Assembly: GCA_016181845.1 (NCBI GenBank)
Contig: JACOYO010000006.1
Span: 1 to 52,447, forward strand
Direction: 5' to 3'
Source of the DNA: Parcubacteria group bacterium
Lineage (GTDB): Bacteria; Patescibacteriota; Minisyncoccia; Phycocordibacterales; 21-14-all-47-15
DNA: 52,447 nucleotides
The position numbers and the translations under genes were made by a program. How positions within the stretch are numbered: position 1 is the first letter of the stretch; every line of letters begins with the position of its first letter. Of this stretch, positions 3,693 to 52,447 are shown piece by piece. The notes below the pieces were generated by a model that worked only from the letters and a program-made list of their open reading frames with translations, ran no database searches and was not told where the DNA came from.

Positions 3693-3763
3693 TCACTTGG
3701 AGACTTCGCCTCCAAGTGATTACGAAACACCGACAGGAAGTCTAACTTCGACATTGACCGTTT

Positions 3764-3910
3764 GGACGTCCGACCTCTGCAGTGGTAAAACATCGGTATT
3801 GGCTATTTAGACGTCCGACCTCTGAATTGGTAAAACATCGGTATTGGCCACAAATAAAATAATTACCACATCAGAGGTCGGACGTCTCACACATCAGAGG
3901 TCGGACGTCT
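3764..3910 (+). repeat. Palindromic element, copy D: extra left arm, full core (3808-3886) and extra right arm
   Basis: Left arm 3764-3807, full core, then a second CATCAGAGGTCGGACGTCT at 3890-3910. Preceded by an 11-bp hairpin aatcacttgga...tccaagtgatt at 3691-3721. Confidence 0.85.
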
Positions 3911-6628: not shown

Positions 6629-7468
6629 CTAGGTTCGTTTTTTCTTGGTACGGCGAGAGACAATGAGAAAATTGGAATACTTTTTTGGACGGCGAGTTTT
6701 GACTCCGCGGATTCCTCTGCCCCAGAGGTTCTTCGGACGGCGCATGCCGGCTCCTTGTCTGCCTTCTCCTCCTCCAAACGGATGGTCTACCGGGTTCATG
6801 GCAGAACCGCGCACTGTCGGACGAATACCCTTCCATCGCGAACGCCCCGCTTTACCGAAATTAACCAGTTTGTGCTCGGCATTTGATACTTCACCAATTG
6901 ACGCCCATGAAGCATCAGGTATTTTTCGTATTTCCCCTGAAGGCATCTTGATGTGCGCGTAACCGGCATCGTTTGCGACAAGCTCGGCGTAGTTGCCCGC
7001 CCCGCGCACGAGTTTCGCGCCGTTATTCGGCTGAAGTTCAATATTAAAAATAAATGTGCCGACCGGAATAAGTTTGAGTGGTAAACGATTTCCCGCTTTT
7101 AATTCGGCATTTTCAGAAATCAAAAACGTATCTCCGACTTTGAGCGATTTTGGCACCAACACATAGCGGCGTTCTCCGTCGGCATAACAGACAAGCGAAA
7201 TAAAGCCCGAGCGATATGGGTCGTATTCAACCGTTTCAATTTTTGCAGGAATATTTTTTTTGTCGTATCTAAAATCAATCAAACGGTGCAAGCGTTTGTG
7301 TCCGCCTCCTTGATGGCGCACGGTAATCCGTCCCGCGCTGTTTCTTCCGGCTCTATTTGCCCTGCCTTTCGTAAGCGGTTTATACGGTTCGGACGCAGTC
7401 AAGACATCACGATATGAAATCGTGCTCATTTGGCGGCGTGATGGAGTTGTCGGGTGATATTTTTTCAT
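6629..7468 (-). CDS. rplB: 50S ribosomal protein L2
   Basis: Full-length L2 sequence (GRNSAGRITVRHQGGGHKR, MNPVDHPFGGGEG). Confidence 0.97.
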   Translation of the reverse strand: MKKYHPTTPSRRQMSTISYRDVLTASEPYKPLTKGRANRAGRNSAGRITVRHQGGGHKRLHRLIDFRYDKKNIPAKIETVEYDPYRSGFISLVCYADGERRYVLVPKSLKVGDTFLISENAELKAGNRLPLKLIPVGTFIFNIELQPNNGAKLVRGAGNYAELVANDAGYAHIKMPSGEIRKIPDASWASIGEVSNAEHKLVNFGKAGRSRWKGIRPTVRGSAMNPVDHPFGGGEGRQGAGMRRPKNLWGRGIRGVKTRRPKKYSNFLIVSRRTKKKRT

Positions 7469-7499
7469 ATTCTATTCATCAATATATATAGCAAAAAAA

Positions 7500-7775
7500 T
7501 TAAAGCGTTTCAATCGTCTCACCCTTTTTAAGAAATACCATCGCTTTCTTTATTTTGGCGGTAAATCCGACATGACCTCGCATAAATACTTTTTTTGACG
7601 GTACCATAATCATGCGCACTTTGCGCGGCGTAACGTTATACAGCAAATGCACTGCCTTAATAACTTCTCGCTTGTTTGCCTTCTGTGCAACCTCAAATAC
7701 ATACACGCCTTTTTCAGAAAGCGATGTGGCTTTTTCGGTAACGCGCGGACGTTTGATTATAGCGTGTTCTTTCAT
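7500..7775 (-). CDS. rplW: 50S ribosomal protein L23
   Basis: L23-like sequence and its position between L4 and L2. Confidence 0.9.
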   Translation of the reverse strand: MKEHAIIKRPRVTEKATSLSEKGVYVFEVAQKANKREVIKAVHLLYNVTPRKVRMIMVPSKKVFMRGHVGFTAKIKKAMVFLKKGETIETL

Positions 7776-7784
7776 GGTATAAAA

Positions 7785-8447
7785 TTAGAGAGATTTCTTT
7801 GCTAAAAAAGCGATTGAAGATTCCGGATTGGTAATTATGAGATACTTATAACGCAATACTTCCATCGGGTTGATATCTTGCAATGCACTCATGCCGACAT
7901 TGGGAAGATTCTGAAAACTTTTTTGGGTATCGCGAGATTCGCCGTTCATTGCCAAAAGCGCGGCATTCTTTGTTTTTTTAACCAGCCCTGGCATTTCTGC
8001 CACGACGCTCAATGTTTTAAGCATAGACTGCGCCGCTTTTGTTTTGGGAGCTGAAAATGAAATAGCATCAACAAACAAAATTTCTTTATCACGCAATTTT
8101 TGAGAGAGCGCGGAGTAGAGCGCTTTGGTGCGCATTTTTTTGTTTAATTTTTTTGCAAAAATCTTTTCATTTGTCGGCCCGTGCGCCACTCCACCTCCCA
8201 CCCAAATCGGCGAACGTGTTGAACCATGCCGCGCGCGGCCGGTGCCTTTCTGCTTCCACGGTTTTTTGCCTCCTCCGCGAACATCGCCGCGGTCTTTCGC
8301 GTGCGCTACCGGAGTGCGCGCGTTTGCCTCCATGGCAACCACTGCCTGATGCACCAAATCGGCATTCCATTTCACGCCAAACACCGCTTCCGGTAAACTC
8401 ACCGTGCCGACTTCTTTGCCTGTTTGATTGTAGATTGTTGCGTTCAT
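7785..8447 (-). CDS. rplD: 50S ribosomal protein L4
   Basis: GGGKKPWKQKGTGRARHGSTRSPIWVGGGVAHGP. Confidence 0.95.
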   Translation of the reverse strand: MNATIYNQTGKEVGTVSLPEAVFGVKWNADLVHQAVVAMEANARTPVAHAKDRGDVRGGGKKPWKQKGTGRARHGSTRSPIWVGGGVAHGPTNEKIFAKKLNKKMRTKALYSALSQKLRDKEILFVDAISFSAPKTKAAQSMLKTLSVVAEMPGLVKKTKNAALLAMNGESRDTQKSFQNLPNVGMSALQDINPMEVLRYKYLIITNPESSIAFLAKKSL

Positions 8448-8462
8448 GAAACTTAAAATATG

Positions 8463-8561
8463 AAAAAATTTTGAATTTTTAATTTTGAATAAATTTTGAA
8501 TGTCTTAATTTAACATTAGGATTTGATTCAAAATTCAAAATTGGAAATTCAAAATTATTTT
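8463..8561. repeat. Word-type spacer (ATTTTGAA octamers) folding into a ~35-bp imperfect hairpin between rplC and rplD
   Basis: The left arm aattttgaatttttaattttgaat is complementary to the right arm attcaaaattggaaattcaaaatt. Confidence 0.7.
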
Positions 8562-8567
8562 ATTATG

Positions 8568-9206
8568 CTATCCTCTGATTTCCAAAAGCGTGCCTCGGCG
8601 GCCTGGAACCGCGCCAGAAACGATAAGCGTTTGTGCTTCCGTGTCGGTGGCGAGTACCGTCAGATTTTTTATCTGAATTCGGTCGCCGCCCATACGTCCC
8701 GCCATCCGCATTCCTCTGATAACCCTGCCCCCGGCGCGTCCTCCGCCTCCGATAGAACCCGGCTCGCGTTCTGAATGTTTTTGCCCGTGCGAACGCGGCC
8801 CGCCCTTAAATCCATGCCGCTTTACCACCCCTTGAAATCCTTTTCCTTTTGAAACCCCAGCAACGCTTACCATGTCTCCTTTGGAGAAAACAGAAACATC
8901 AATGCTGTTTCCGACTGCGACACCATCCAAACCGCCAGATGTCTTTGGACGAAATTCTTTCGCGTGCTGAAAAAAACCTTTGTCTCCAAAATGCCCTTTT
9001 TGCGCTTTTGTAAGACGTTTGCCGCTTGTTGTCCCATATCCGACTTGCACCGCTTCATAGCCGTCTTTTTCTTTGCTGCGGATTTGCGTGACCACAATCG
9101 GGCCTGCGGAAATAACCGTCGCGGGATGCACCGTGCCGTTTTCATCAAACACTTGCGTCATGTATTGTTTTTTTCCAAGAATGTATTTCATTTTGTTTAG
9201 AATCAT
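8568..9206 (-). CDS. rplC: 50S ribosomal protein L3
   Basis: L3 sequence (GKKQYMTQVFDENG..., FKGGPRSHGQKHSEREPGSIGG). The start could be the second Met at 9191. Confidence 0.95.
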   Translation of the reverse strand: MILNKMKYILGKKQYMTQVFDENGTVHPATVISAGPIVVTQIRSKEKDGYEAVQVGYGTTSGKRLTKAQKGHFGDKGFFQHAKEFRPKTSGGLDGVAVGNSIDVSVFSKGDMVSVAGVSKGKGFQGVVKRHGFKGGPRSHGQKHSEREPGSIGGGGRAGGRVIRGMRMAGRMGGDRIQIKNLTVLATDTEAQTLIVSGAVPGRRGTLLEIRG

Positions 9207-9262
9207 GAATTAGGAAGCAAGAATCAGGAACAAAAAACTGCAAAACAATTTTTTGTAACGGC

Positions 9263-9345
9263 AAGACGTCCGACCTCTGATGTGGTAATTACTTTATTTA
9301 TTATAGCCAATGCCGATGTTTTACCACTGCAGAGGTCGGACGTCT
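9263..9345 (-). repeat. Palindromic element, copy F, inverted orientation, inside the S10 operon between rpsJ and rplC
   Basis: Reverse complement of the core: AGACGTCCGACCTCTGATGTGGTAATTAC...TTACCACTGCAGAGGTCGGACGTCT. Confidence 0.85.
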
Positions 9346-9362
9346 TATGATTCGCGATCCAC

Positions 9363-9758
9363 TTAAAGCATCTTCACGTCAATATTTACCCCCGACGGCA
9401 AGTTTAAGTTTGTCAACGCCTCTATCACGTTTGCCGCCGGATTTAAGATGTCAATCAAACGCTTGTGCACTCGCATTTCAAATTGTTCTCGCGCATTTTT
9501 ATATACGAATGCGGCGCGATTGACGGTGTATTTCTTAATCTCGGTCGGTAGAGGCACCGGCCCAACTATGGTTGCGCCGTACCGAAGCGCGGTATCAATA
9601 ATCTGCTTCACCGAATTATCAAGCACTTTGTGTTCATAGGCCTGAACGCGAATGCGCAATTTTGCGATGGCTTCTTCTTTTTTCTGACGAGGTTTCGCCT
9701 TCAGCGTTGCGGCTTTCGGAGTCTTCGCGATTTTTTTTATTTTTGTTTCAGTGGGCAT
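9363..9758 (-). CDS. rpsJ: 30S ribosomal protein S10 with a ~30-aa Lys-rich N-terminal extension
   Basis: The S10 core begins RIRVQAYEHKVLD. The ORF is 131 aa, whereas S10 is usually ~100 aa. Confidence 0.93.
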   Translation of the reverse strand: MPTETKIKKIAKTPKAATLKAKPRQKKEEAIAKLRIRVQAYEHKVLDNSVKQIIDTALRYGATIVGPVPLPTEIKKYTVNRAAFVYKNAREQFEMRVHKRLIDILNPAANVIEALTNLNLPSGVNIDVKML

Positions 9759-10979: not shown

Positions 10980-11078
10980 AAAGTTTTTAGCGACGAAACA
11001 TTACTCTGCGAGAACAGATGGGTAATGTTTTGCCGTTAGTTACATGCTAAATTATTAATAATATATGTTTCGTCTTCG

Positions 11079-11175
11079 CTCCTTACAGGAGCAGTACACC
11101 TTTTGGATATATTTTCGCTTTCGGCTCAAATCTATCTCAAAAGGTCTTGCGCCGCTCCATGTATTCGCGCCGCAA
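11079..11175 (-). repeat. Three-hairpin structured module (H3-CAGTACA-H2-H1 family), stand-alone copy
   Basis: CTCCTtacaGGAG + CAGTACA + ACCTTTTGGATATATTTT..AAATCTATCTCAAAAGGT + TTGCGCCGC..GCGCCGCAA. Same architecture as the units next to tRNA-Leu(GAG) and downstream of rplK. Confidence 0.7.
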
Positions 11176-21811: not shown

Positions 21812-21972
21812 GTTGACCACCTCCATTCGAGTAAAAATTTATATTTTATTATTGATGTCAAAGAGATTTTATTTGTTTTAATGTTATCACATAATACAAA
21901 AAAGTCAAGGGGCACCGTGTAATGCGCGCGCACAGAGGACTTTCTCTAGATAGATTATAAGTTCCATTTTGG

Positions 21973-22282
21973 TGCGCGGGAGAGGATTTGAATCTTACAG
22001 ATTCAGTACACCTTTTGGATATATTGCTTCGCAAGCTCGCAATCTATCTCAAAAGGTTTTCAAATCCGCATAACGCTTCGCGAAAGCGAAGCTATGCCTC
22101 CCGCGCATATTACGCTTCGCTCCAATATGCGCGGGAGAGGATTTGAATCTTACAGATTCAGTACACCTTTTGGATACATTGCTTCGCAAGCTCGCAATCT
22201 ATCTCAAAAGGTTTTCAAATCCGCATAACGCTTCGCGAAAGCGAAGCTATGCCTCCCGCGCATATTACGCTTCGCCCCAATA
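21973..22282 (-). repeat. Two tandem 155-bp units immediately 3' of tRNA-Leu(GAG). Each ends in a copy of the tRNA's 3' 22 nt and begins with its inverted complement.
   Basis: tgcgcgggagaggatttgaa starts at 21973, 22128 and 22283, giving a period of 155. The units are ~98% identical and differ at about three positions that I saw. Confidence 0.9.
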
Positions 22283-22366
22283 TGCGCGGGAGAGGATTTG
22301 AACCTCCAAGCCCTTGCGGGCGCTACCACCTCAAGGTAGTGCGTCTACCAATTTCGCCACCCGCGC
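22283..22366 (-). tRNA. tRNA-Leu (anticodon GAG), long variable arm; no encoded CCA
   Basis: GCGCGGG acceptor, CTACC-TTGAGGT-GGTAG anticodon arm, variable arm CGCCCGCAAGGGCTT, T arm GGAGG-TTCAAAT-CCTCT. Confidence 0.9.
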
Positions 22367-22378
22367 AAAATTGTATTT

Positions 22379-22384
22379 AGTATA
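22379..22384 (-). promoter_or_regulatory. -10 box TATACT 12 nt upstream of the tRNA-Leu(GAG) 5' end
   Basis: The minus strand reads ccaTATACTaaatacaatttt|GCGCGGG. Confidence 0.35.
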
Positions 22385-22414
22385 TGGTATTTTGTATGCG
22401 GTATCAAGAAAACT

Positions 22415-22444
22415 AAAAACCTTGCGATATATCGCAAGGTTTTT
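22415..22444 (-). terminator. Rho-independent terminator of rplS
   Basis: aaaaaccttgcgatatatcgcaaggttttt, with further T residues. Confidence 0.7.
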
Positions 22445-22451
22445 AGTTTTT

Positions 22452-22916
22452 TTATTCTTTAATTTTATCTGTAGTTTCTGTGATGACGGTTTCTTTTTCT
22501 GTTTCAGAAAGTTCTTTATCAGCACCAAGCGCTTCTCCCGCATCTTCTCTTTTTTCAAACAAAACATGTTTCAATTTTTTGCGGGCTTCTTTTGCGACCT
22601 TTTCACGAATATAGTAGAGCTTCGCTCGCCGCGTTTTTGCGCGTTTTATCACTTCAATGCGGTCAACCGCCGTAGAATAGAGAGGGAAAATACGCTCCAC
22701 ACCAACACCGCTTGCCACTTTGCGCACGGTAAACGTCGCGCCTTGTTCTTTGCCGTGTTTGCGCGCGAGCACGAGCCCTTCAAACGCCTGCAGTCGCGTC
22801 TTGCCTTTCTCTTGTATTTTCTGAAATACTTTCACCGTATCGCCCGACTTAAAATCAAGCGCCGCGCGCTTTTCGGTACCTGCAGGTATCAGAGATATTG
22901 TTTTCCGCTCTGTCAT
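22452..22916 (-). CDS. rplS: 50S ribosomal protein L19 with an acidic/Lys-rich C-terminal extension
   Basis: [35 protein letters not shown]...[17 protein letters not shown] is L19. The start is trimmed to MTERKT; the upstream part of the 238-aa ORF is not L19-like. Confidence 0.9.
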
Positions 22917-27348: not shown

Positions 27349-30300
27349 TCACTTTTCGTTTTGCGTTTGTATACGCACTCTAAACACCGCATCGTCAACG
27401 GTGATGTCCGCGCCATCTGATACGGCGGCAAAAAATATTTCTCTGGCACGAAGCGCTTTTTTAATATAGGAAAGATACGTATTGATTATTTCTTTTCCAA
27501 AATTATTTGCTTCTATGGTGATAATAATTTCATCGCTCGTGGAAAATTCTTTTTCTTTCCTTATATCCTGCAGGGCGCGGACAAATTCACGCGCCTGTCC
27601 TTCTTGTTTGAGTTCGGGTGTTATCAGCGTATCTAATTCCACATCGTTTTCCATTGAGTCGCTAAATGTTATTTCTTTCACATTTACTTCATCTTTAATC
27701 AGTTGCAATAATTCCTCGTTGTTCCTGATTCCTGATTCCTGATTCCTGATTCTTAATGTCATAAGCGGCTGGCGCACTTTAATTTTTGCTTTCATTCGCA
27801 GGTCAAGCGCGAGCGAAACAATGCGTCGTGCTTCTTTCATTTTTTCTATAATTCCAGTCTCCGCTTTCCAGTTTTCAGTCTCCAGTTTCGGCCATTCTTC
27901 AAAATGGACGCTTGCTTTTACTCCGCCCAACCTTTGATACATATCTTCGGCAATAAACGGCAGTATCGGCGCGATAATTTTTGAGAAAGAGAGCAAGACT
28001 TCGCGTGTGGTATTTCGCGCGTGCTCCTTATCTTCCCCCTCTTCCTTAAATCGATCGCGTGAGCGACGAATATACCACGTGGACAAATCATCCACAAAAT
28101 CGCCGACGGGCTTCACCGCGCGGTCAAGCTCGTAGGCATCGAGCGCTTCTTCAATTTGTTTCCCAAGCACGTTTGCGCGCGCAAAAATCCATTCGTCCAA
28201 AACATTTTTTGTTTTGCGTTTTGCGTTTTGCGTTTTTGAATTTTTATACAGTTCAAAAAAAGAGAGTACATTTTCCAAACGCAGAATAACTTTTTTATAT
28301 ACTTCATCCACGCCTTTTTCTGAAAAAAAGAGTGTTTCTCCGCGCACCACCGGCGAAGCAAGCAGATAGTAGCGGAGCGCGTCAGCGCCATAGGTATTGA
28401 TGATATGCGCCGGATCGGGATAATTTTTAAGACGCTTTGACATTTTTTGCCCGTTTTCCGCAAGAATCAAGCCGTTCACAATCACATTTCTATACGCCGA
28501 TTCTCCAAACAGCCCGATTGAAAGCACGAGCATGTTGTAAAACCACCCGCGCGTCTGGTCCAATCCTTCGGCGATAAAATCGGCGGGAAAATTGGCGCGA
28601 AAGAGCTTGCCTTCTTTGGTTGCGTCAGTCCCCATGTAATGAAACTGCGCGTATGGCATAGAGCCCGATTCAAACCAGCAGTCAAAGACTTCGTGGACGC
28701 GGCGCATCATTCCTCCACACTCACTCCGACGCTCACGGTCGGAGTTCCGACCCCTTTGGGTGTCGGAACAATCAAAAATCATTTCATCAATATAAGGTCG
28801 ATGCAGGTCAAGCTCATAATTGTGATTATGAGGAAACGGCACAAACGATAATGCCATTGAGCCGCCGGTTTTAATAAAATCCTCCCCCGCTTTTTCTTTC
28901 ATGGCGACCGCTTCTTTCACATCAGCTCCAAGCGCTCCCGCCGCAAGCATCCACGACGGATACTCGTGCGTCACTATCAGTATGGTTTTTCCTTGATACA
29001 TGGCGTCCGTTTCAGAAAGGAAATCCATAAGACGATTTTTCATATCAAGCAATGTTTCTCCGCGCGGTGTCGGTTTATAAAATTTTTCTTCCGGCGATGA
29101 AAAATAATCGTGATACACGGACACCGGTTTGCCATCCAAATCGCCCGTGACTAATTCTCTTAAACGATTATCCACGATAATATCAGCGCCCGAAATATCC
29201 AACGCCTCGGCAAGAATATCGGCGCTTTCCTTGGCGCGCACAAATGGCGACGTGAAAATAAAATCAATTTTTTTCTCTTTCAGTTTCTTCGCGGCGGTTT
29301 TCACTTCCTCTTTACCTTTTTCGGTCAGGTGATGCGGAGTATCCGGATTGCCGCTCAACACATTTTCTTTATTGTGTTCCGCTTCTCCATGCCGTATCAA
29401 AATATATTCATTGCGCGGTTTTTTTGCTTTAGTAATATCCGCTAGCGAGCCGACAATGTGAATAGTCGCGCACTTTTCGCATTTCCAAACCGGAATCGGC
29501 GCGCCCCAATATCGCGAGCGCGAGATCGCCCAATCGCGCGCCCCTTCGAGCCACTTGCCAAAACGTCCGTCACGGATATGCTCCGGCACAAAACGGATTT
29601 TTTTATTCGCCTCAATCAGGAGGTCTTTAAATTTTGTCACCCCAACAAACCATGATGACGCCGCATAATTTAGAAGCGGCGTATCGCATCGCCAACAATG
29701 CGGATAGGGGTGTGTTATTTTTTCTTTCGCAAAGAGAAGTCCGCGGTGCGCGAGATTTTTGATAATCATGACATCTGCTTCTTCTGGATTCTCTTTCGGC
29801 TTTACTAACGCTCCGGCAAAATCGGCAACCTCTGTCTTGAACCGCCCGTCCATGCCGACATGCTGAATAAACGGCAAATCATATTTTTTACCGAGCTCCA
29901 TATCGTCTTCACCGAATGACGGTGCGATGTGCACGATGCCAGTCCCGCTTTCCGTGTTCACAAAATCCGCCGCGTACACTTTCCAGCCGTTTTCACGATT
30001 GGAAAGTTTTTCGTCTTTTGAATAATAGTCAAAAATCGGCTTGTATTTTTTACCTATAAGCTCGCTTCCTTTTATTTCTTCAAGAATTTCATACTCTTCT
30101 TTTATTACCGTGAGCCGCTCTTTCGCAATAATATACGAATTCATGATTCCTAATTCATGATTCATGATTCCGATTTTTACATACTCAATATCAGGATTCA
30201 CCGCGAGCGCCACGTTCCCCGGCAATGTCCACGGCGTCGTCGTCCACGCAAGCATGAACGTCCCGGGTTCATCGACAAGTTCAAATTTTACATACACCGA

Positions 30301-32110: not shown

Positions 32111-33748
32111 TTACATCTTCGTCGGCGCGGAGATGCCCAGGAGAGAGAGCGATTGCTTGATTGTGGCGCGGGTGAGCAAGGCAAGTTTTAACGCGCCGTC
32201 ATTATATGAATCGTCATCCTGCAGTATGCGGACATCGCGGTAAAATTGAGAAAACGCAGTTGCTAATTCATACGCGTAGGTCGTCAATTTGTGCACTTGA
32301 TAATCATTCGCAATTTCTTCAACCACTTCGGGGAATTCGCCTATTTTTGAAGCAAGCACGCGCGCCGATGGCGCCGCGATATCTGAAAGAACGCTTCCAT
32401 CGGGGACTTTTCCTCGCGTGTTTTCTTCAATGGAGCAAATTCGCGCGTGCGCATATTGCACATAGTAGACCGGATTCTCGGCTGATTGTTTTTTTGCAAG
32501 CTCCAAGTCAAACTCCATGTGCGTACCAAGCGCTTTTTCAAGATAAAACCATCGGAGCGCGTCAATGCCCACCTCACGAACCATATCTTCAAGAAGCACC
32601 ACCGTCCCCGCACGCTTGCTCATTTTTTTTGAGACGCCTTCCTCTTTTAGCGACACGAGCTGGGTAATAAAAATTTGAAAGAGAATATTCCAGCCGAGCA
32701 TTTTTTTCACCGCAAGCATTCGTTTCACATGTCCGTGATGGTCCGCCCCCCAAATGTCAATCAGCCCGTCGTACCCGCGCCCGATTTTATCCGCGTGGTA
32801 AACAATATCGTTCATAAAGTAACTCCAGGTGCCATCGGAACGCTTCACCACACGGTCTTCGTCGTCGCCGTATTCGCTTGTCTTAATCCACCACGCGCCC
32901 TCTTTTTCATATACAAAGTTTTTTTCTTTGAAAACACCAAAGAGCGTCTGCACAATTCCTGAACCGCGCAATTTTTCGTCTTCCGAATACCACACATCAA
33001 ACGGGATTCCCAATGCGCTCTCTATAAAATGGGTATTTTCTTTTTGCACTTCTTTTGCAAGCGAAAATCCCGCGGCGCTCGGGTCATTTTTAAATTTTTT
33101 AATTTCCGATTTGAGATTTGAGATTTGAGATTTGAGATGTTCGGTCAGATATTGTTCTCCTTGCCCCAATGCCGTCTTGCCAAGCTCAATAATCTGCTTG
33201 CTCTCGCGCGAATCATTGATATAAAATTCACGGGTTACCTTTGCGCCGACATACGCCAAAACACGCGCAAGCACATCGCCATAAAATGCTCCGCGTCCGT
33301 GCCCGATGTGGAGCTTGCCCGTCGGATTGACCGAAATAAATTCAAGGTTGACCGCTTCCCCTTTTTTCAATAAAAAGCCGCGCGAAATCTCCAGTCCGAT
33401 TTTCTCCGCGGTTTCAAAAATCGCTTTGTCGGTAAGAAAAAAATTCACAAACCCCGGCCCCGCCCCTTCCACGCGCGCGATGCGCGTGTCTTTTGCTGAA
33501 GCAAGACGCTCCGCAAGCACCCCTGCCAACTCCCGCGGATTTTTGCCGAAATCTTTTGCATACACGAGAGCCGCATTGGTGGCATAATCCCCCTGCGTCT
33601 TGTCTGCCGGACGTTCCAAAAAAGGAGACGGATTTGCTACCCCGATATCGGCAAGTGCTTGGGCAACCATTTTTTTGAGTTCTTCTCGTAACATATCAAG
33701 CATCATAACACGAGAATTATTGAAAATTAAAATACCCCCGCGACGCAA
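32111..33748 (-). CDS. argS: Arginine--tRNA ligase
   Basis: NPTGKLHIGHGRG (HIGH) and KMSKRAGT, with a DALR-type C-terminus. The true start is probably one of the Met codons at residues 15-19. Confidence 0.95.
   Translation of the reverse strand: MRRGGILIFNNSRVMMLDMLREELKKMVAQALADIGVANPSPFLERPADKTQGDYATNAALVYAKDFGKNPRELAGVLAERLASAKDTRIARVEGAGPGFVNFFLTDKAIFETAEKIGLEISRGFLLKKGEAVNLEFISVNPTGKLHIGHGRGAFYGDVLARVLAYVGAKVTREFYINDSRESKQIIELGKTALGQGEQYLTEHLKSQISNLKSEIKKFKNDPSAAGFSLAKEVQKENTHFIESALGIPFDVWYSEDEKLRGSGIVQTLFGVFKEKNFVYEKEGAWWIKTSEYGDDEDRVVKRSDGTWSYFMNDIVYHADKIGRGYDGLIDIWGADHHGHVKRMLAVKKMLGWNILFQIFITQLVSLKEEGVSKKMSKRAGTVVLLEDMVREVGIDALRWFYLEKALGTHMEFDLELAKKQSAENPVYYVQYAHARICSIEENTRGKVPDGSVLSDIAAPSARVLASKIGEFPEVVEEIANDYQVHKLTTYAYELATAFSQFYRDVRILQDDDSYNDGALKLALLTRATIKQSLSLLGISAPTKM
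33108..33135. repeat. Four tandem heptamers GATTTGA inside argS (encode KSQISNLKSEI)
   Basis: gatttgagatttgagatttgagatttga. Confidence 0.9.
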
Positions 33749-36635: not shown

Positions 36636-36805
36636 CCTTTGAATTACAAAACATCAAGAGGCCAGACTTCTGCATTGATATAAAATCGGCATTCCTTGTT
36701 TAGACGTCCGACCTCTGAATTGGTAAAACATCGGCATTGGCTATAAATAAAGTAATTACCACATCAGAGGTCGGACGTCTTGTCGGCGTTTCGCAATTCA
36801 AAGTT
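36636..36805 (+). repeat. Palindromic element, copy G: outer inverted repeat, degenerate half and full core (36701-36780)
   Basis: CCTTTGAATTACAAAACA ... GCGTTTCGCAATTCAAAGTT flank the core. Confidence 0.85.
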
Positions 36806-37101
36806 ACCTCACTTCAACTCCTTACAGGAGCAGTAGTCACGAATATTTTTCTGTTGAAAAATTTCGCGACCACGACTCACTCGCTCTGGCTCGCTCCGTC
36901 TTTGAATTGCTTCAAGTGTTCGCAATTCAACCTTTTGGACATATTGCTTCGTAAACTCGCAATCTATCTCAAAAGGTCGATTGATGTTTCGTTACCTCAC
37001 ATCAACTCCTTACAGGAGCAGTACACCTTTTGGACTTTTTACTTCGCGCGGCTCGTAAAAATTCTCAAAAGGTCCATCGATGTTTCTTATTTCACATCGA
37101 T
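36803..37101 (-). repeat. Three consecutive hairpin modules of the H3-H2-H1 family, directly downstream of and overlapping the rplK stop
   Basis: GTTACCTCAC(T/A)TCAACTCCTTACAGGAGCAGTA occurs twice (36803, 36991). ACCTTTTGGA...TCTCAAAAGGT hairpins at 36930-36977 and 37024-37072. The terminal hairpin catcgatgt..acatcgatg includes the rplK stop codon. Confidence 0.75.
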
Positions 37102-37506
37102 GCCCATGCTTCGAGCCGTGCCCTCAATAATTTTTGAAGCGGCATCAATGTCGTGCGCGTTAAGATCTTGCATTTTCTTTTCGGCGATTTCTCGGATTTG
37201 CGCTTTGGTCACGCTTCCCGCTTTTATCACTGCGTTTTTTCCGGAACCTTTCTCTTTTCCTGCCGCTTTCAAAATAAGACTTGCCGCCGGCGGTGTTTTT
37301 AACACAAAATTAAAACTGCGGTCTTCAAACACGCTGATTTCAACCGGAACGATATCGCCTTTCATCTGTGCCGTCGCGTCATTAAATCGTTTGACGAATT
37401 CGCCGATATTAATACCCGCTTGTCCAAGCGCCGGCCCTACCGGAGGTGCGGGTGTCGCCGCTCCGCCCGGAATCTGCAATTTAAGTTTTTTTGTTATTTT
37501 TGCCAT
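37087..37506 (-). CDS. rplK: 50S ribosomal protein L11
   Basis: [30 protein letters not shown]. Confidence 0.97.
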
Positions 37507-37521
37507 AAAAATAAATAATTA

Positions 37522-48442: not shown

Positions 48443-48979
48443 TTACTTCTTAAACGGCACTCCCAAGTGTTCAAGAAATGCTGTCGCTTCCTCTTTCTTT
48501 TTTGCCGTTGTAACAATCGTAATCGCGAGCCCGAAAACATCTTTCAAGTCTTCATCGGAAGTTTCCGGAAAAATCACATGCTCTTTTATGCCAAGCGTCA
48601 AATTGCCGACAGCGTCAATGCCGGTTTTGACAAATCCGCGAAAATCGCGCATTCGGGGTACGGCAATGTTGAAAAGCTTATCAAGAAATGCGTACATCCG
48701 CGCCCCGCGCATGGTCACCATATATCCGACAGGGTCGCCCTCCCGCAATTTGAAAGTGGCGATTGATTTTTTTGCTCCGCGGAGCGCCGGTTTTTGTCCG
48801 GTAATTTTTGCCAACCTGCTGGCAACCACTTCATTCCGCTGTTTTTTGTCTTTCGCCGAGCCGGTACCCGCGCTCACTGCAATTTTCACCAGGCGCGGAG
48901 CTTCCATCGCGTTAGTATAACCAAACCGCGCTTGAAGGGCTTTGAATGCTGTTTTTTCGTTTTGTTTTGTTGAAATCAT
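48443..48979 (-). CDS. rplE: 50S ribosomal protein L5
   Basis: L5 sequence, 178 aa. Confidence 0.95.
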   Translation of the reverse strand: MISTKQNEKTAFKALQARFGYTNAMEAPRLVKIAVSAGTGSAKDKKQRNEVVASRLAKITGQKPALRGAKKSIATFKLREGDPVGYMVTMRGARMYAFLDKLFNIAVPRMRDFRGFVKTGIDAVGNLTLGIKEHVIFPETSDEDLKDVFGLAITIVTTAKKKEEATAFLEHLGVPFKK

Positions 48980-48998
48980 GGTGTTGGGTTATTAGGTT

Positions 48999-49238
48999 TT
49001 AGCTTTTTAGGCCGCTTTTCTGGTCAACGAGCATCACATTTGACACATGCATCGGCGCCGGATATTCCACAATCTGCCCTTTTTGCCCTCCGCGTCGCGC
49101 TCGTTGGTGTCTCTTTTTTATATTCACCCCCTCAACAACAACCCGATTTTCTTTCGGGATTGCTTTCAAAATCTTTCCTTTCTTTCCTTTATCTTTGCCG
49201 GTTATGACGGCAACGGTGTCATTTTTTTTGATACGCAT
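48999..49238 (-). CDS. rplX: 50S ribosomal protein L24
   Basis: KOW motif IKKNDTVAVITGKDKGKKGKI. Start trimmed to MRIKKND. Confidence 0.92.
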   Translation of the reverse strand: MRIKKNDTVAVITGKDKGKKGKILKAIPKENRVVVEGVNIKKRHQRARRGGQKGQIVEYPAPMHVSNVMLVDQKSGLKS

Positions 49239-49253
49239 AAAAATAAAATTCAA

Positions 49254-49625
49254 TTACACCACTTCCGGCGCAAGAGATATCACTTTCTGATAACCGGCAT
49301 CGGCAAGCTCACGCGGAATCGGTCCGAATACGCGCGCGCCGCGCGGCTCTTTTTTGTCTGGGTCAACAATTACGACCGCGTTTTCGTCAAACCGAATATA
49401 CGAACCGTCTTTTCTGCGGTATGCTTTTTTCTGACGAACCACCACTGCTTTCAGCACATCTTTTTTCTTCACTTGCTTCCGCGGCTCGGCAACCTGCACC
49501 GAAAGCACGACAATTTCACCGATTTCGGCATAGCGTTTTTTTGAACCGCCGAGCACTTTGAAAATACGCCCGATTTTACCGCCGGTGTTGTCTGCAATTT
49601 TTACGATTGAACGTGGTTGAATCAT
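49254..49625 (-). CDS. rplN: 50S ribosomal protein L14
   Basis: MIQPRSIVKIADNTGGK. Confidence 0.97.
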   Translation of the reverse strand: MIQPRSIVKIADNTGGKIGRIFKVLGGSKKRYAEIGEIVVLSVQVAEPRKQVKKKDVLKAVVVRQKKAYRRKDGSYIRFDENAVVIVDPDKKEPRGARVFGPIPRELADAGYQKVISLAPEVV

Positions 49626-49659
49626 ATGTTTAGCTTTTTAGGTTAATCGACTCCGCCCT

Positions 49660-49929
49660 TCATTTTTCTAAAACCTTAAAATGTTTATCTTTTGAAAGCG
49701 GGCGTGTCTCTTCTATTTCAACCGTATCGCCGACCTTGTGCTTGTTTTCTTCGTCGTGCGCTTTGTATTTTTTGCTCTGTTTAATGTATTTTTGATATTT
49801 CGGATGTTTAACAAAACGGTTCACCAAAACAACGACAGTTTTGTCCATTTTGTCGGACACAACGACGCCGCGAAGTCTTTTGCCTGCGGATAATCCTGTT
49901 TTTTTTGTTGATGCTGTGTTGTTTTTCAT
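49660..49929 (-). CDS. rpsQ: 30S ribosomal protein S17
   Basis: [19 protein letters not shown]...[27 protein letters not shown]. Confidence 0.95.
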
Positions 49930-49946
49930 ATTAAAAATTCTTTGCT

Positions 49947-50141
49947 TTATTTTTTACGGGCGTTCAGTTCGGTTAAAATACGCGCCACCACTTTTCGGCG
50001 ATTGGCTGATTCTTTGATATTTTTTGTCTTGCTTCCGGCAACGCCAAACCGAAACCGCCGCAATGCTTCCCGATTGAGAACAAGCTCTTTTTGCAAATCG
50101 GCATCAGTATTTTTTTTGAAATTGTGTTTTGTTTTTGTCAT
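49947..50141 (-). CDS. rpmC: 50S ribosomal protein L29
   Basis: Size, sequence and position between L16 and S17. Confidence 0.9.
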
Positions 50142-50145
50142 ATCG

Positions 50146-50565
50146 TTATCGCGCTACCACTTTTGATTTGAGCGGAAGTTTTGAGCCGGCTTTTCTAAGC
50201 GCTTCATGCGCAATTTCTCCGCTGATTCCATCAACTTCAAAAATCACCCGACCCGGTTTCACTTCCATTGAATATCCCTCTAAATCTCCCTTGCCTTTTC
50301 CCATTGGGGTTTCAGCGCCTTTTGCAGTATATGGGCGGTCCGGAAAAATACGAATCCACATTTTCCCCGTCTTACCCATCGTCCGTGAAATCACCTTTCT
50401 TGCCGCCTCAATCTGATTTGACCTGACTCGCGCTGGGGAAGTGGCTTTCAACCCAAAAGAGCCAAAAGAGATTTTTGTTCCTCTCGTTTCCGGGCGGGCA
50501 ATCTTCAGCGGGTGTTTGCGTCCGGTTTGCCACTTTCTAAATTTTACTTTTTTGGGAAATAACAT
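50146..50565 (-). CDS. rplP: 50S ribosomal protein L16
   Basis: MLFPKKVKFRKWQTGR. Confidence 0.97.
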   Translation of the reverse strand: MLFPKKVKFRKWQTGRKHPLKIARPETRGTKISFGSFGLKATSPARVRSNQIEAARKVISRTMGKTGKMWIRIFPDRPYTAKGAETPMGKGKGDLEGYSMEVKPGRVIFEVDGISGEIAHEALRKAGSKLPLKSKVVAR

Positions 50566-50571
50566 GTTTGA

Positions 50572-51264
50572 TTATGAATGTTCTTGTCCTCTTACCGGCA
50601 CGTCTTTTTCCGCCTGGAAAACTTCTCCTTTGTAAATCCAGACTTTGATGCCGATATCGCCGTATGACATGTGCGCTTTTTCGCGCGCAAAATCAATATC
50701 CGCGCGAAATGTTTGAAGCGGGATTGTTCCGCGCTTGATGCTTTCTCTGCGCCCCATGTCGGCACCGCCCAACCGTCCCGAAAGCGCGATTTTTGCGCCC
50801 TTCACGTTTCGGTTTGCCATAACTTTTTCAATCGTCTGTTTCAAAATGCGGCGAAATGTCAGCCGTTTTTCCAATCCTTCTGCGACCATTTGCGCGACAA
50901 GGGAGGCATCGGATTCCGGCTGTTTCACCTCTTCAATATCTACCTTGATATCTTCAGGGAGCGTAAGCGCGTGTTTTTTAAAAAAAGTTACAATTTCTTC
51001 TTTCAGTTTTGTCGAGCCCTCGCCGCCGCGTCCTATGATAACACCCGCGCGCGCTGTTTTGATGATAATCCGAAACGTGTTGCGGTTTCTTTCTATTTCA
51101 ATACCGGACACCAGACTGCCGCGCAATTTTTTTTCAAGATATTCGCGGACAAGCACGTCTTCTTTCAGAGTTTTTGCATACCCTTTGCCAACGCCAAACC
51201 AGCGAGATTTCCAATCTCTTAAAATAACGAGGCGGTGTGCGTATGGGTGAACGACGTGTGACAT
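50572..51264 (-). CDS. rpsC: 30S ribosomal protein S3
   Basis: KH domain and the S3 C-terminal domain; 230 aa. Confidence 0.96.
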   Translation of the reverse strand: MSHVVHPYAHRLVILRDWKSRWFGVGKGYAKTLKEDVLVREYLEKKLRGSLVSGIEIERNRNTFRIIIKTARAGVIIGRGGEGSTKLKEEIVTFFKKHALTLPEDIKVDIEEVKQPESDASLVAQMVAEGLEKRLTFRRILKQTIEKVMANRNVKGAKIALSGRLGGADMGRRESIKRGTIPLQTFRADIDFAREKAHMSYGDIGIKVWIYKGEVFQAEKDVPVRGQEHS

Positions 51265-51294
51265 AATAAAAAGGTAAGATATAAAAATATAAAA

Positions 51295-51648
51295 TTATTT
51301 TTTTGTTTTTTTGTTGTTCTCTTTCTCTCCCAAAACAATCGTAATGTGGCTGGAGCGTTTGTTGATTGGTGTCGCACGGCCCATGGCGCGCGGCATGCTC
51401 CGCTTTAGCGTCACTCCCTTGTTGACCTGAATATCTTTCACGAAAAGCGCATGCATATCATTTTTTCCTTCCGTATTTTTTGCGTTTGCAACCGCTGATT
51501 CAAGTAATTTTTTGAGCGGAGTAGTCGCGCGTTTTGGAAGCACCGAAAGAGCAATGAGGGCATCGGGCACTCGTTTGCCGCGTATTGCGTTGGCGACTAC
51601 ACGCACTTTGCGTGGCGACTGTCTATAATTTTTAAGAAATGCGCGCAT
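51295..51648 (-). CDS. rplV: 50S ribosomal protein L22
   Basis: YRQSPRKVRVVANAIRGKRV. Confidence 0.95.
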   Translation of the reverse strand: MRAFLKNYRQSPRKVRVVANAIRGKRVPDALIALSVLPKRATTPLKKLLESAVANAKNTEGKNDMHALFVKDIQVNKGVTLKRSMPRAMGRATPINKRSSHITIVLGEKENNKKTKK

Positions 51649-51672
51649 GGTAAAAAATAATTGGGGAAACTT

Positions 51673-52017
51673 TTATTTCTTGGTGGTATCGGTCGCTGTT
51701 TTTGCGGCTTGAGCGGCGGCAATTTCGGCTTCTTTCTTTTTCTGCTCAATCTCTTTCTGCATTTTTCCGCCGTGCCGGAGAAACTTCTTTGTAGGAGAAA
51801 ACTCTCCCAGCCGATGTCCGACCATTTCTTCGGACACCAACACTTCAATGTGGCTTTTGCCATTGTATATGCCAAAAGTAAATCCGACCATTTCAGGAGC
51901 GATTTGGCTTGCGCGCGCCCACGTCTTAACAACACCGGCTTGTTCCGGTTTCTTTCCCTGAATTTTTTTCAGGAGTTTTTCGTCCACATACGGACCTTTT
52001 TTGAGCGAGCGTGTCAT
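51673..52017 (-). CDS. rpsS: 30S ribosomal protein S19 with a ~25-aa Lys/Ala-rich C-terminal extension
   Basis: [18 protein letters not shown]...[10 protein letters not shown]. Start trimmed to MTRSLKK. Confidence 0.93.
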
Positions 52018-52283
52018 AATCAAATAAAAGCACCCCTGCAAGGGCTGTCTCACATACTAAACAAAACCTTATTTATTGTCAATAAAAATCTGGCTGAATT
52101 GCTGTTTAATCTGTTTTTTGCTATATTTGCTAAGTTGTTAGGTTTTAGGTTGTTATTAAAATTCCTAAAAAGCTAACAAGTTAATTCCCTAATAAGCTAA
52201 TTACTATCGCGCGGGTAGCTGTTTTGGTAGGCTCAAAGGTAAGTAGTACATTTCTTGTAATAAGTTTTGATAAATTAAATATC

Positions 52284-52359
52284 GCGCGCTTAGCTCAGTT
52301 GGTAGAGCAACCCGTTTACACCGGGAAGGTCGGGGGTTCAAGTCCCTCAGCGCGCACCA
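52284..52359 (+). tRNA. tRNA-Val (anticodon TAC) with encoded CCA
   Basis: GCGCGCT acceptor, GCTC/GAGC D stem, anticodon loop TTTACAC, T arm GGGGG-TTCAAGT-CCCTC, then ACCA. Confidence 0.88.
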
Positions 52360-52377
52360 ACGAACGAAGTGAGTGCC

Positions 52378-52447
52378 GTGCGCGCTGAGGCGCAGCTTTT
52401 CTCGCAAGAAAAGCGTAGCGCGGACTTGAAAAGGTTGCCTGCTATTT
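52378..52447 (+). repeat. tRNA-linked structured element (truncated by the window end) whose 5' part is the inverted complement of the tRNA-Val 3' end, split by a hairpin
   Basis: GTGCGCGCTGAGG (complement of CCTCAGCGCGCAC in the tRNA) + hairpin GCGCAGCTTTTC-TCGCAA-GAAAAGC-GT-AGCGC + GGACTTGAA (complement of the T-loop TTCAAGTCC). Confidence 0.75.

Follow-up and report, generated by a model that had tools for sequence, protein, structure and literature searches.

The stretch of DNA analyzed here, the whole 52,447-nucleotide (nt) contig JACOYO010000006.1 of a Parcubacteria group bacterium (hereafter, the window), ends inside an element that follows a tRNA-Val(TAC) gene and carries segments complementary to the 3′ end of that tRNA. 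It was demonstrated that this sequence belongs to a family of tRNA-linked repeats of Patescibacteria, which also includes the two 155-nt units behind the tRNA-Leu gene of the window. The closest known thing to this family are the tRNA-linked repeats (TLRs) of Escherichia coli, of which it is a distant counterpart. The elements are widespread in Patescibacteria and, as far as could be found, apparently had not been described there before, the literature search having returned no description of such elements in this phylum.

The tRNA-Val gene, encoded CCA included, occupies positions 52284..52359 of the plus strand (ARAGORN; Rfam tRNA, 68.6 bits). An earlier note, prepared from the bare sequence, had proposed that an antisense copy of the tRNA acceptor and T stem lies 18 nt past the CCA, that it is followed by a hairpin built like the first one of the Leu units and by a complement of the T loop, and that the window ends within this element; each of these observations was borne out. 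The 18-nt spacer (52360..52377, +) forms, by sequence and fold, the apical loop of a long hairpin and harbors the mini-hairpin motif ACGAAGT at 52364-52370, in a GA-(mini-hairpin)-GAA context that recurs in relatives. It is followed by segment A, GTGCGCGCTGAGG (52378..52390, +), which is over all its 13 nt the exact reverse complement of CCTCAGCGCGCAC (52345-52357; tRNA-Val positions 62-74), by the hairpin H1 (52390..52421, +), recognized by fold and covariation, and by segment B, GGACTTGAA (52422..52430, +), the complement of the stretch TTCAAGTCC in the T loop and the start of the T stem (positions 54-62). The tRNA-Val stretch paired by the element extends from the T loop to C74 (52337-52357, +). 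H1, the most conserved module of the element family, is composed here of GCGC, AGCTTTTC-loop-GAAAAGC, a GT(A) bulge on the 3′ side and GCGC, with an outer stem of 4 bp and an inner stem of 7-8 bp, as in the Leu units. The last 17 nt (52431..52447, +) are the start of a second hairpin, H2, of the type AAGGTTGCC..., cut by the contig end. The element is present as its first ~88 nt (52360-52447), and the missing part, which by homology would measure ~50-65 nt, would comprise the remaining H2, GTACTGAAnnnGTAAnn and a copy of TTCAAGTCCCTCAGCGCGCA.

The complementarity exceeds what is expected by chance, as the earlier note had argued: segment A of Val has two sites in the window against 0.04 expected, and the motif AAGCGTnnnGCGGAnTTGAAAA has three (the two Leu units and Val) against 0.19. 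Additionally, a covariance model built from relatives assigned 44.9 bits (E ~1e-8) to 52378-52447, the match being truncated 3′ where the sequence stops. For the junction of the 3′ half of tRNA-Val with A, H1 and B, a folding energy of −53.2 kcal/mol (z = −6.4) was computed versus −31.0 kcal/mol for the cloverleaf alone, and the corresponding values for tRNA-Leu are −55.6 and −38.2 kcal/mol. Independent Logan contigs from the same organism also stop at these tRNA-end repeats and, since the window is a complete deposited contig, the truncation of the Val element is attributed to an assembly break at the repeat. No extension of it was obtained by exact-protein look-ups (S19, L22 and a histidine kinase), which led to short Logan contigs stopping at repeats, and a metagenome scan with a Val-specific pattern returned two chance matches only, in GC-rich coding DNA.

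The tRNA-Leu(GAG) gene (22283..22367, −) is encoded without CCA, and its native CCA is found at 21970-21972, only after the last copy of an array with a period of 155 nt, 2.1 copies and 98% matches. Unit 1 (22128..22282, −; 122.9 bits with the covariance model R1 described below) begins directly after A73 of tRNA-Leu and comprises, on the minus strand, a spacer, segment A (22252-22264), H1 (22223-22252), segment B (22214-22222), H2 (22166-22211), a conserved GTACT (22160-22164), a GTA hairpin (22145-22159) and a copy of tRNA positions 54-73 (22128-22147). Unit 2 (21973..22127, −; 124.6 bits) follows the same plan, its terminal tRNA-end copy being followed by the native CCA, and its distal junction was also seen in the Logan contig L039. 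In both units the copy of the tRNA 3′ end is identical in 20/20 nt, and segments A and B are fitted to tRNA-Leu, as had been claimed. Two solo modules, both without a tRNA nearby, were detected elsewhere in the window. The first (11078..11148, −; R1, 48.1 bits, E 1.6e-9), between an HtrA-like gene and tuf, consists of H2, GTACTG and the GTA hairpin, and the second (37005..37074, −; R1, 45.7 bits), directly behind rplK, consists of H2 and the GTA hairpin and is part of a cluster (36830-37080, −) that contains a second H2 and another type of 3′ module at 36830-36990. In a promoter and terminator scan, the whole tract from the tRNA-Leu promoter to the array end was free of terminators. Upstream of this promoter, between it and an L19-like gene, a perfect 20-bp hairpin with flanking A and T runs (22406-22453) looks like a bidirectional terminator.

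A degenerate pattern derived from the two examples of the window was used to scan contigs representing one genome per species, and 34 matches were obtained against ~3 expected by our own estimate. About 30 of the 34 were found in Patescibacteria (Paceibacterota, Saccharibacteria, Nomura- and Kaiserbacteria), and ~28 were located 27-56 nt behind a tRNA gene or within an array behind one, every one on the tRNA strand, with Gln, Leu, Ser, Arg, Tyr, Trp and Val among the host tRNAs. The RS_8_2 lineage is an example of an element-rich group. The units share a common plan, measure ~110-190 nt and lie directly behind the discriminator base or the CCA. Their 5′ part is formed by the spacer, segment A (antisense to tRNA positions ~62-74), H1 (AGCTTT...AAAGCGT) and segment B (GGAYTYGAA, antisense to positions 54-62), and their 3′ part by a long H2, of which several sequence types exist, GTACTGAA, a GTA-loop hairpin of 5-6 bp and a direct copy of tRNA positions ~54-73. 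The covariance model R1, built from 16 units, recognized 51 copies in 257 kb. Relatives whose H2 starts as in the Val element (GAAAAGGTTGYY) end, in 6/6 complete cases, in ...CGACAACCTrTACTGAAnnnGTArnn followed by a copy of their own tRNA end. Tandem arrays, with units placed head to tail, were also observed at the loci L014, L016, L024, L029 and L012. Further subfamilies present a variant H1 or none, a segment B extended into the T stem, a terminator-like spacer or a second type of 3′ module, and elements of such other subfamilies are located at L016 6590-7100, L024 77-420, L029 and L019 2200-2570 (−). One of them, the 'X' type of ~190 nt, is found at tRNA-Tyr, where it alternates with H1-type units within one array. 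Likewise, at least 8 of the 24 tRNAs without the H1 pattern are still followed by a copy of their own 3′ end, which belongs to other subfamilies.

The earlier note had further claimed that a shared architecture carries parts tailored to each host tRNA, and this was supported across the family. Segment A of 20 elements matched the tRNA of its own locus at 10.8/12 positions on average versus 6.5/12 for unrelated tRNAs, only 1.3% of the pairs of A with a foreign tRNA reaching 10/12, and segment B was the exact complement of the resident T loop in 22/25 cases. Within 450 nt downstream of 52 tRNA genes, from the loci and the window, a direct copy of the gene's own 3′ end was found in 29 cases and an inverted copy in 14, compared with 2 and 1, respectively, in the upstream controls; such a survey, for the inverted copy, had been suggested in the earlier note. 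The direct repeat starts in the T loop at positions 54-57, its exact start depending on the element to its left, stops at position 73 (+0-3) and, with a length of ~20 nt, flanks every complete unit; the terminal tRNA-end copy was found in 19 parsed relatives. The coupling of the element to its tRNA stood as a general pattern but not as an automatic one, since at L031 and L016 segment A belongs to another tRNA. As L031 keeps the A of Leu-CAA, the fit of A is not produced automatically. Additionally, at L030 and L019, segments A and B follow the element's own distal copy where this copy differs from the resident tRNA.

RNAalifold analysis of the 16 units yielded 41 consensus pairs, distributed over H1, H2, the GTA hairpin and the pairing of B with its partner; compensatory double changes were seen at 27 of these pairs, and the z-scores of the folds ranged from −6 to −9. 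When the tRNA was included, its positions 54-73 paired with B and A, resulting in a three-way junction with H1; in a free unit, A and B pair with the element's own distal copy instead. In the stems of H1 and H2, 30 G·T pairs versus 0 A·C mismatches were counted on the tRNA-sense strand, demonstrating that foldability is maintained on this strand only, while a count of G·U pairs in whole-unit folds of both strands (45 vs 37) gave no discrimination. The same asymmetry is observed in two-base-pair GNA mini-hairpins (GCGAAGC, GCGCAGC, CTGTAAG and similar), 77 of which lie on the sense versus 7 on the antisense strand, corresponding to 27 and 2.5 per kb over a background of 4.4 per kb. Mini-hairpins of the GNA type reach an extraordinary stability as DNA, far above that of their RNA counterparts (PMC13037366; PMC3201870). 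In several subfamilies, a terminator-like hairpin lies between the tRNA and the rest of the element, before A, which argues against a need for co-transcription. Because of the stability of the mini-hairpins in DNA and of these terminator-like hairpins, single-stranded DNA, as the non-template or the lagging-template strand, is favored as the working form of the element.

Several observations point to the spread of the elements. Outside the tRNA-specific parts, copies at different tRNAs within one genome are 0.86-0.99 identical, the between-genome mean being 0.68; in the extreme case of L028 (Leu-CAA) and L031 (Leu-TAG), the identity is 99% over ~160 nt. At L017 and L007, chimeras were found in which elements of two tRNAs are joined at the T loop, and in tandem arrays like units are mixed with unlike ones of different subfamilies. 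The native CCA follows only the last copy also at L028, L018 and L014, and assemblies break at these repeats. Furthermore, copies away from tRNA genes are located at L004 1640-1790, L035, L034 and positions 11078 and 37005 of the window, the left flank of the ectopic L004 copy sharing only the last 6 nt of its cognate tRNA. Taken together, arrays, chimeras, copies away from tRNAs and near-identical copies within a genome suggest that the elements spread as selfish DNA, and we infer from them that the elements are mobile. The copies of L034 and L035 are truncated or complete H1-type elements preceded by a conserved stretch of ~30 nt, AAAGyTCTAAyATCGTCmmAGACkGCCAGC; the contig of L034 is binned as Nitrosomonas and may be a misbinned Patescibacterial contig. 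At L028 7790-7900, a fragment of the tRNA-Leu(CAA) body, from the anticodon stem to the T arm, was observed inside a composite element behind that tRNA.

The TLRs of E. coli were first described by Egan & Landy in 1978 and amount to 22 copies at 10 loci, with 1-5 per locus; as of 2021, they had no known function, with the exception of three rRNA-linked copies, for which in vitro binding to Hfq and CsrA is known (PMC8144298). For the tyrT/rttR region of E. coli, an elevated mobilome coverage has been described (bioRxiv 10.1101/2024.07.17.603846). Both kinds of element follow their gene, a tRNA or, in E. coli, also an rRNA gene, immediately and on its strand, form tandem units (at tyrT/tyrV, a 178-nt unit is repeated 3.1 times), lack a credible open reading frame (ORF) and present a sense strand rich in G/C-closed GNA mini-hairpins. 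The final 18-19 nt of every E. coli unit repeat the 3′ end of the upstream gene without change; a terminal copy fitted to the gene, which the earlier note had anticipated for the Val element, cut before that point, was found in complete Patescibacterial units and was already a known hallmark of TLRs. In the outer helix of the Rfam model RtT (RF00391), an internal GGGGAAGGAU pairs with the terminal AUCCUUCCCC of the tRNA copy, which is the principle of segment A and the copy. Additionally, the rrnB unit of E. coli contains the 11-mers GCGGATTTGAA and TTGCGAAGCAA in the same order as the Leu unit of the window. On the other hand, the antisense part of TLRs measures ~10 nt, whereas that of the Patescibacterial elements measures 13 + 9 nt and is split by H1, and the latter also differ in their inner modules (H2, GTACTG and the GTA hairpin), their host phylum and their many more subfamilies and tRNA specificities. 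Covariance models connect the two families in neither direction: RF00391, which scored E. coli units at 133-138 bits as a positive control, had no match in the window at its gathering threshold (45 bits) nor within 21900-22400 at E<=10, and R1 reached at best 4.5 bits on E. coli TLRs. Given the shared plan and the lack of covariance-model matches, the Patescibacterial elements are classed as being of the same kind as the E. coli TLRs and not as members of RF00391. In E. coli itself, the 11-mer GCGGATTTGAA found in the rrnB T1-T2 spacer after the 5S rRNA (L042) is the complement of a tRNA T loop, which suggests that the rRNA-linked repeat of rrnB may descend from a tRNA-linked one.

On balance, the evidence tips slightly towards the elements being selfish and non-autonomous, inserting or recombining at the ~20-nt end of tRNA genes, with the folded sense strand recognized by an enzyme acting in trans. 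The tRNA end would serve as an identity block for insertion or recombination that leaves the tRNA intact, a candidate trans-acting enzyme would cut and join, and each inserted unit would offer the target anew, giving rise to arrays. Where no terminator intervenes, as for both copies of the window, the element would be co-transcribed with the tRNA, and the helix between A and the copy, which resembles an acceptor stem, could allow tRNA-processing enzymes to trim the element off, as for the rtT RNA of E. coli. Selection on the helix probably keeps A fitted to its neighbor. Imperfect inverted repeats are known to be corrected by template switching (PMC7202029), and such correction may assist the refitting of A, which would be the changing arm because the tRNA arm cannot change without harm.

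A number of observations weigh against selfish spread through single-stranded DNA. Neither in the window nor at the ~30 loci was a transposase, an integrase or a HUH enzyme encountered near a copy. The high similarity of copies within a genome could stem from gene conversion instead of transposition, and no pair of filled and empty insertion sites was found, the comparison at a syntenic tRNA-Trp having failed because the flanks were too diverged and L019 carries another subfamily. In many copies, segment A presents 1-2 mismatches. Moreover, the G·T asymmetry would be equally compatible with RNA, the spacer hairpins include UUCG loops and, as no terminator separates tRNA and element in the window, transcripts of the element should surely exist there. 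The location of the Val and Leu elements on opposite strands, given a GC skew of constant sign across the window, does not support a strict preference for the lagging-strand template. Finally, TLRs of E. coli are transcribed and processed, rtT RNA being a real processed RNA (PMC8144298).

An alternative, considered unlikely, is that the element serves its host as an RNA. In that case, tRNA-processing enzymes would excise it as a 3′ trailer co-transcribed with the tRNA, the helix of A and the copy mimicking the acceptor stem, and it would then function as a small RNA, whether by sponging, by binding a protein or by modulating tRNA maturation, in line with proposals for the RrA/B/F and rtT RNAs of E. 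coli. Such a role agrees with the invariable sense orientation directly behind the tRNA, with the lack of a terminator from the tRNA-Leu promoter to the array end, with a covarying structure containing pairs of the G·U type, with the same outer helix in the Rfam RtT model and with the precedent of E. coli, whose TLRs are expressed as processed RNAs, in vitro binding of Hfq and CsrA being known for three. However, only some tRNAs of a genome carry the element and the set varies between genomes, and the tandem and mixed arrays, truncations, chimeras and solo modules resemble decay and spread rather than a single gene. In addition, a terminator-like hairpin precedes A in many subfamilies, most loops are GNA triloops, whose special properties pertain to DNA and not to RNA, and if only a helix mattered, there would be no need for it to match the neighboring tRNA exactly.

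A further-reaching reading, to which only a small probability is given, considers A and B together as a long exchangeable guide on the folded sense strand, whose pairing with the exposed 3′ end of a tRNA gene would direct insertion behind any matching sequence. The actor would be a putative enzyme or the replication, repair or tRNA-processing machinery of the host, and the Patescibacterial elements and the TLRs would form one old and widespread class of guide-carrying, non-autonomous single-strand elements, retargeted by 13-22 nt. The ectopic L004 copy, whose flanking site has only the final 6 nt of its tRNA in common, fits such guidance. The elements were also compared with other known systems. 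Like IS200/IS605 elements, palindrome-associated transposable elements (PATEs) and the repetitive extragenic palindromes with their associated transposases (REP/RAYT), the Patescibacterial elements are small and hairpin-rich with one foldable strand, and subterminal imperfect hairpins folding on one strand only were found in them. Insertion 3′ of a defined sequence and non-coding derivatives moved in trans are also features of IS200/IS605. Barabas reportedly described in 2008 that the IS200/IS605 site is recognized by pairing of the flank or end with a guide located 5′ of the hairpin foot. This guide has 4 nt, in contrast to 13-22 nt in the Patescibacterial elements, and IS200/IS605 elements, which insert without target duplication and have a short target (4-5 nt) 5′ of the left end, produce no long direct repeat, whereas complete Patescibacterial units are flanked by one of ~20 nt. 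To our knowledge, no tRNA target exists in the IS200/IS605 family, and no Y1 (HUH) transposase was found among the ORFs of the window or of the ~30 loci. A target-complementary segment that changes with the target is shared with the exon- and intron-binding sites (EBS/IBS) of group II introns and with the IS110 bridge RNA; unlike these, the elements have neither a reverse transcriptase or recombinase gene nor a ribozyme core or Rfam match, and they carry a sense copy of the whole target.

Less probable still is an origin as miniature derivatives of integrase-driven elements, comparable to the cis-mobilizable elements (CIMEs) derived from integrative and conjugative elements, with attachment-site arms between attL and attR and an integrase encoded elsewhere. 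The direct repeat covers the tRNA gene from its T loop to its end, and this stretch is reportedly, after Williams in 2002, the classical identity block of tRNA-integrating elements. As in tRNA-targeting integrative elements and CIMEs, the tRNA is restored and units accumulate in tandem, different elements occurring at one tRNA; the native CCA after the last copy only (tRNA-Leu, L028, L018 and L014) and a crossover 3′ of position 57 at L019 are also in line with such an origin. However, units of 110-190 nt with an internal antisense of the target differ from CIMEs, and no integrase was found in the window or beside any of the ~30 loci. The units contain no ORF and no gene family recurs beside them (~30 loci); among the 10 unassigned ORFs of the window there was no transposase or integrase, and the Pfam matches of the window were housekeeping proteins. 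Two scans of viral contigs were empty, and blastn against phages and plasmids returned no match. Besides, double-stranded protein-binding arms would show neither strand-specific covarying hairpins nor the 77:7 asymmetry of mini-hairpins, and the junction has no symmetric core site. In the attC sites of integrons, the site is likewise set by single-strand structure, with bulged bases, strand selectivity and arrays at a fixed site, but the Patescibacterial elements possess no IntI, attI or cassette ORFs, their repeat is the tRNA end and their fold is on the tRNA-sense strand. A passive by-product of replication slippage, template switching and recombination at the conserved T loop, with no dedicated machinery or function, is just as improbable: the 5′ limit of the copy in the T loop, the longest stretch common to all tRNAs, the L017 and L007 chimeras joined there and the established template switching in imperfect inverted repeats (PMC7202029) favor it, but H1, H2 and the GTA hairpin persist, with compensatory changes, in distant lineages and at unrelated tRNAs, which requires selection on the fold, and the non-tRNA modules would be left wholly unexplained.

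Other candidate structures were considered and rejected. Among Rfam families, only tRNA was found, at the gathering threshold in the window and at E<=10 within 21900-22400, and for this reason a group I or group II intron, a self-cleaving ribozyme and a T-box are not supported. A terminator/antiterminator switch was discarded as a general feature, since the hairpin flagged at 52379-52394 is confined to cases with GCGC in the acceptor end, and a primer-binding site of retroviral type was ruled out because segment A leaves the CCA uncovered.

Regarding the remaining features of the window, the ribosomal-protein genes are fragmented into clusters at 6629-9758, 48443-52053 and 37087-37510. The S10-L3-L4-L23-L2 cluster ends at 6629 without S19, and the genes from S19 to L5 are found ~40 kb away, adjoining tRNA-Val and its element, with a DsbA-like gene after L5; the adjacency of tRNA-Val and S19 was confirmed by a Logan contig. 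Behind rplK, repeats and a dCTP deaminase gene occupy the place of the expected rplA, and both the S19 and the rplK breakpoints carry repeats of the tRNA-linked type. A second repeat family, with the core AGACGTCCGACCTCTGAwGTGGTAA, is located at 2244-2329, 3761-3848 and 3867-3910, with tandem copies of 45 nt close to arrayed genes for small membrane proteins; an inverted pair of it, at ~36715-36790, adjoins the element cluster behind rplK. Additionally, 7-nt tandem repeats of 3.7-4.6 copies, three of the four exact, were observed at 27722-27752 (TTCCTGA), 28211-28236 (GTTTTGC), 30139-30170 (ATTCATG) and 33108-33138 (GATTTGA). Their period is not a multiple of three and they lie within two long intact minus-strand ORFs, three in one of 1190 aa and one in one of 531 aa, both of which look like putative aminoacyl-tRNA synthetases.

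In practical terms, the repeats break Patescibacterial assemblies at tRNA genes, and in the window they are found at the breakpoints of ribosomal-protein operons (S19 and rplK), operons of a kind that serve as phylogenetic markers. An element of the kind represented by the TLRs, known in E. coli since 1978, is now recognized in a very distant phylum with tiny genomes, where the variation available in Patescibacteria, with many subfamilies at many tRNAs, suffices to define its fold, its active strand and the parts that track the tRNA. Therefore, an old curiosity becomes a testable problem, namely which enzyme recognizes the element, whether its form is DNA or RNA and how its antisense part is refitted.

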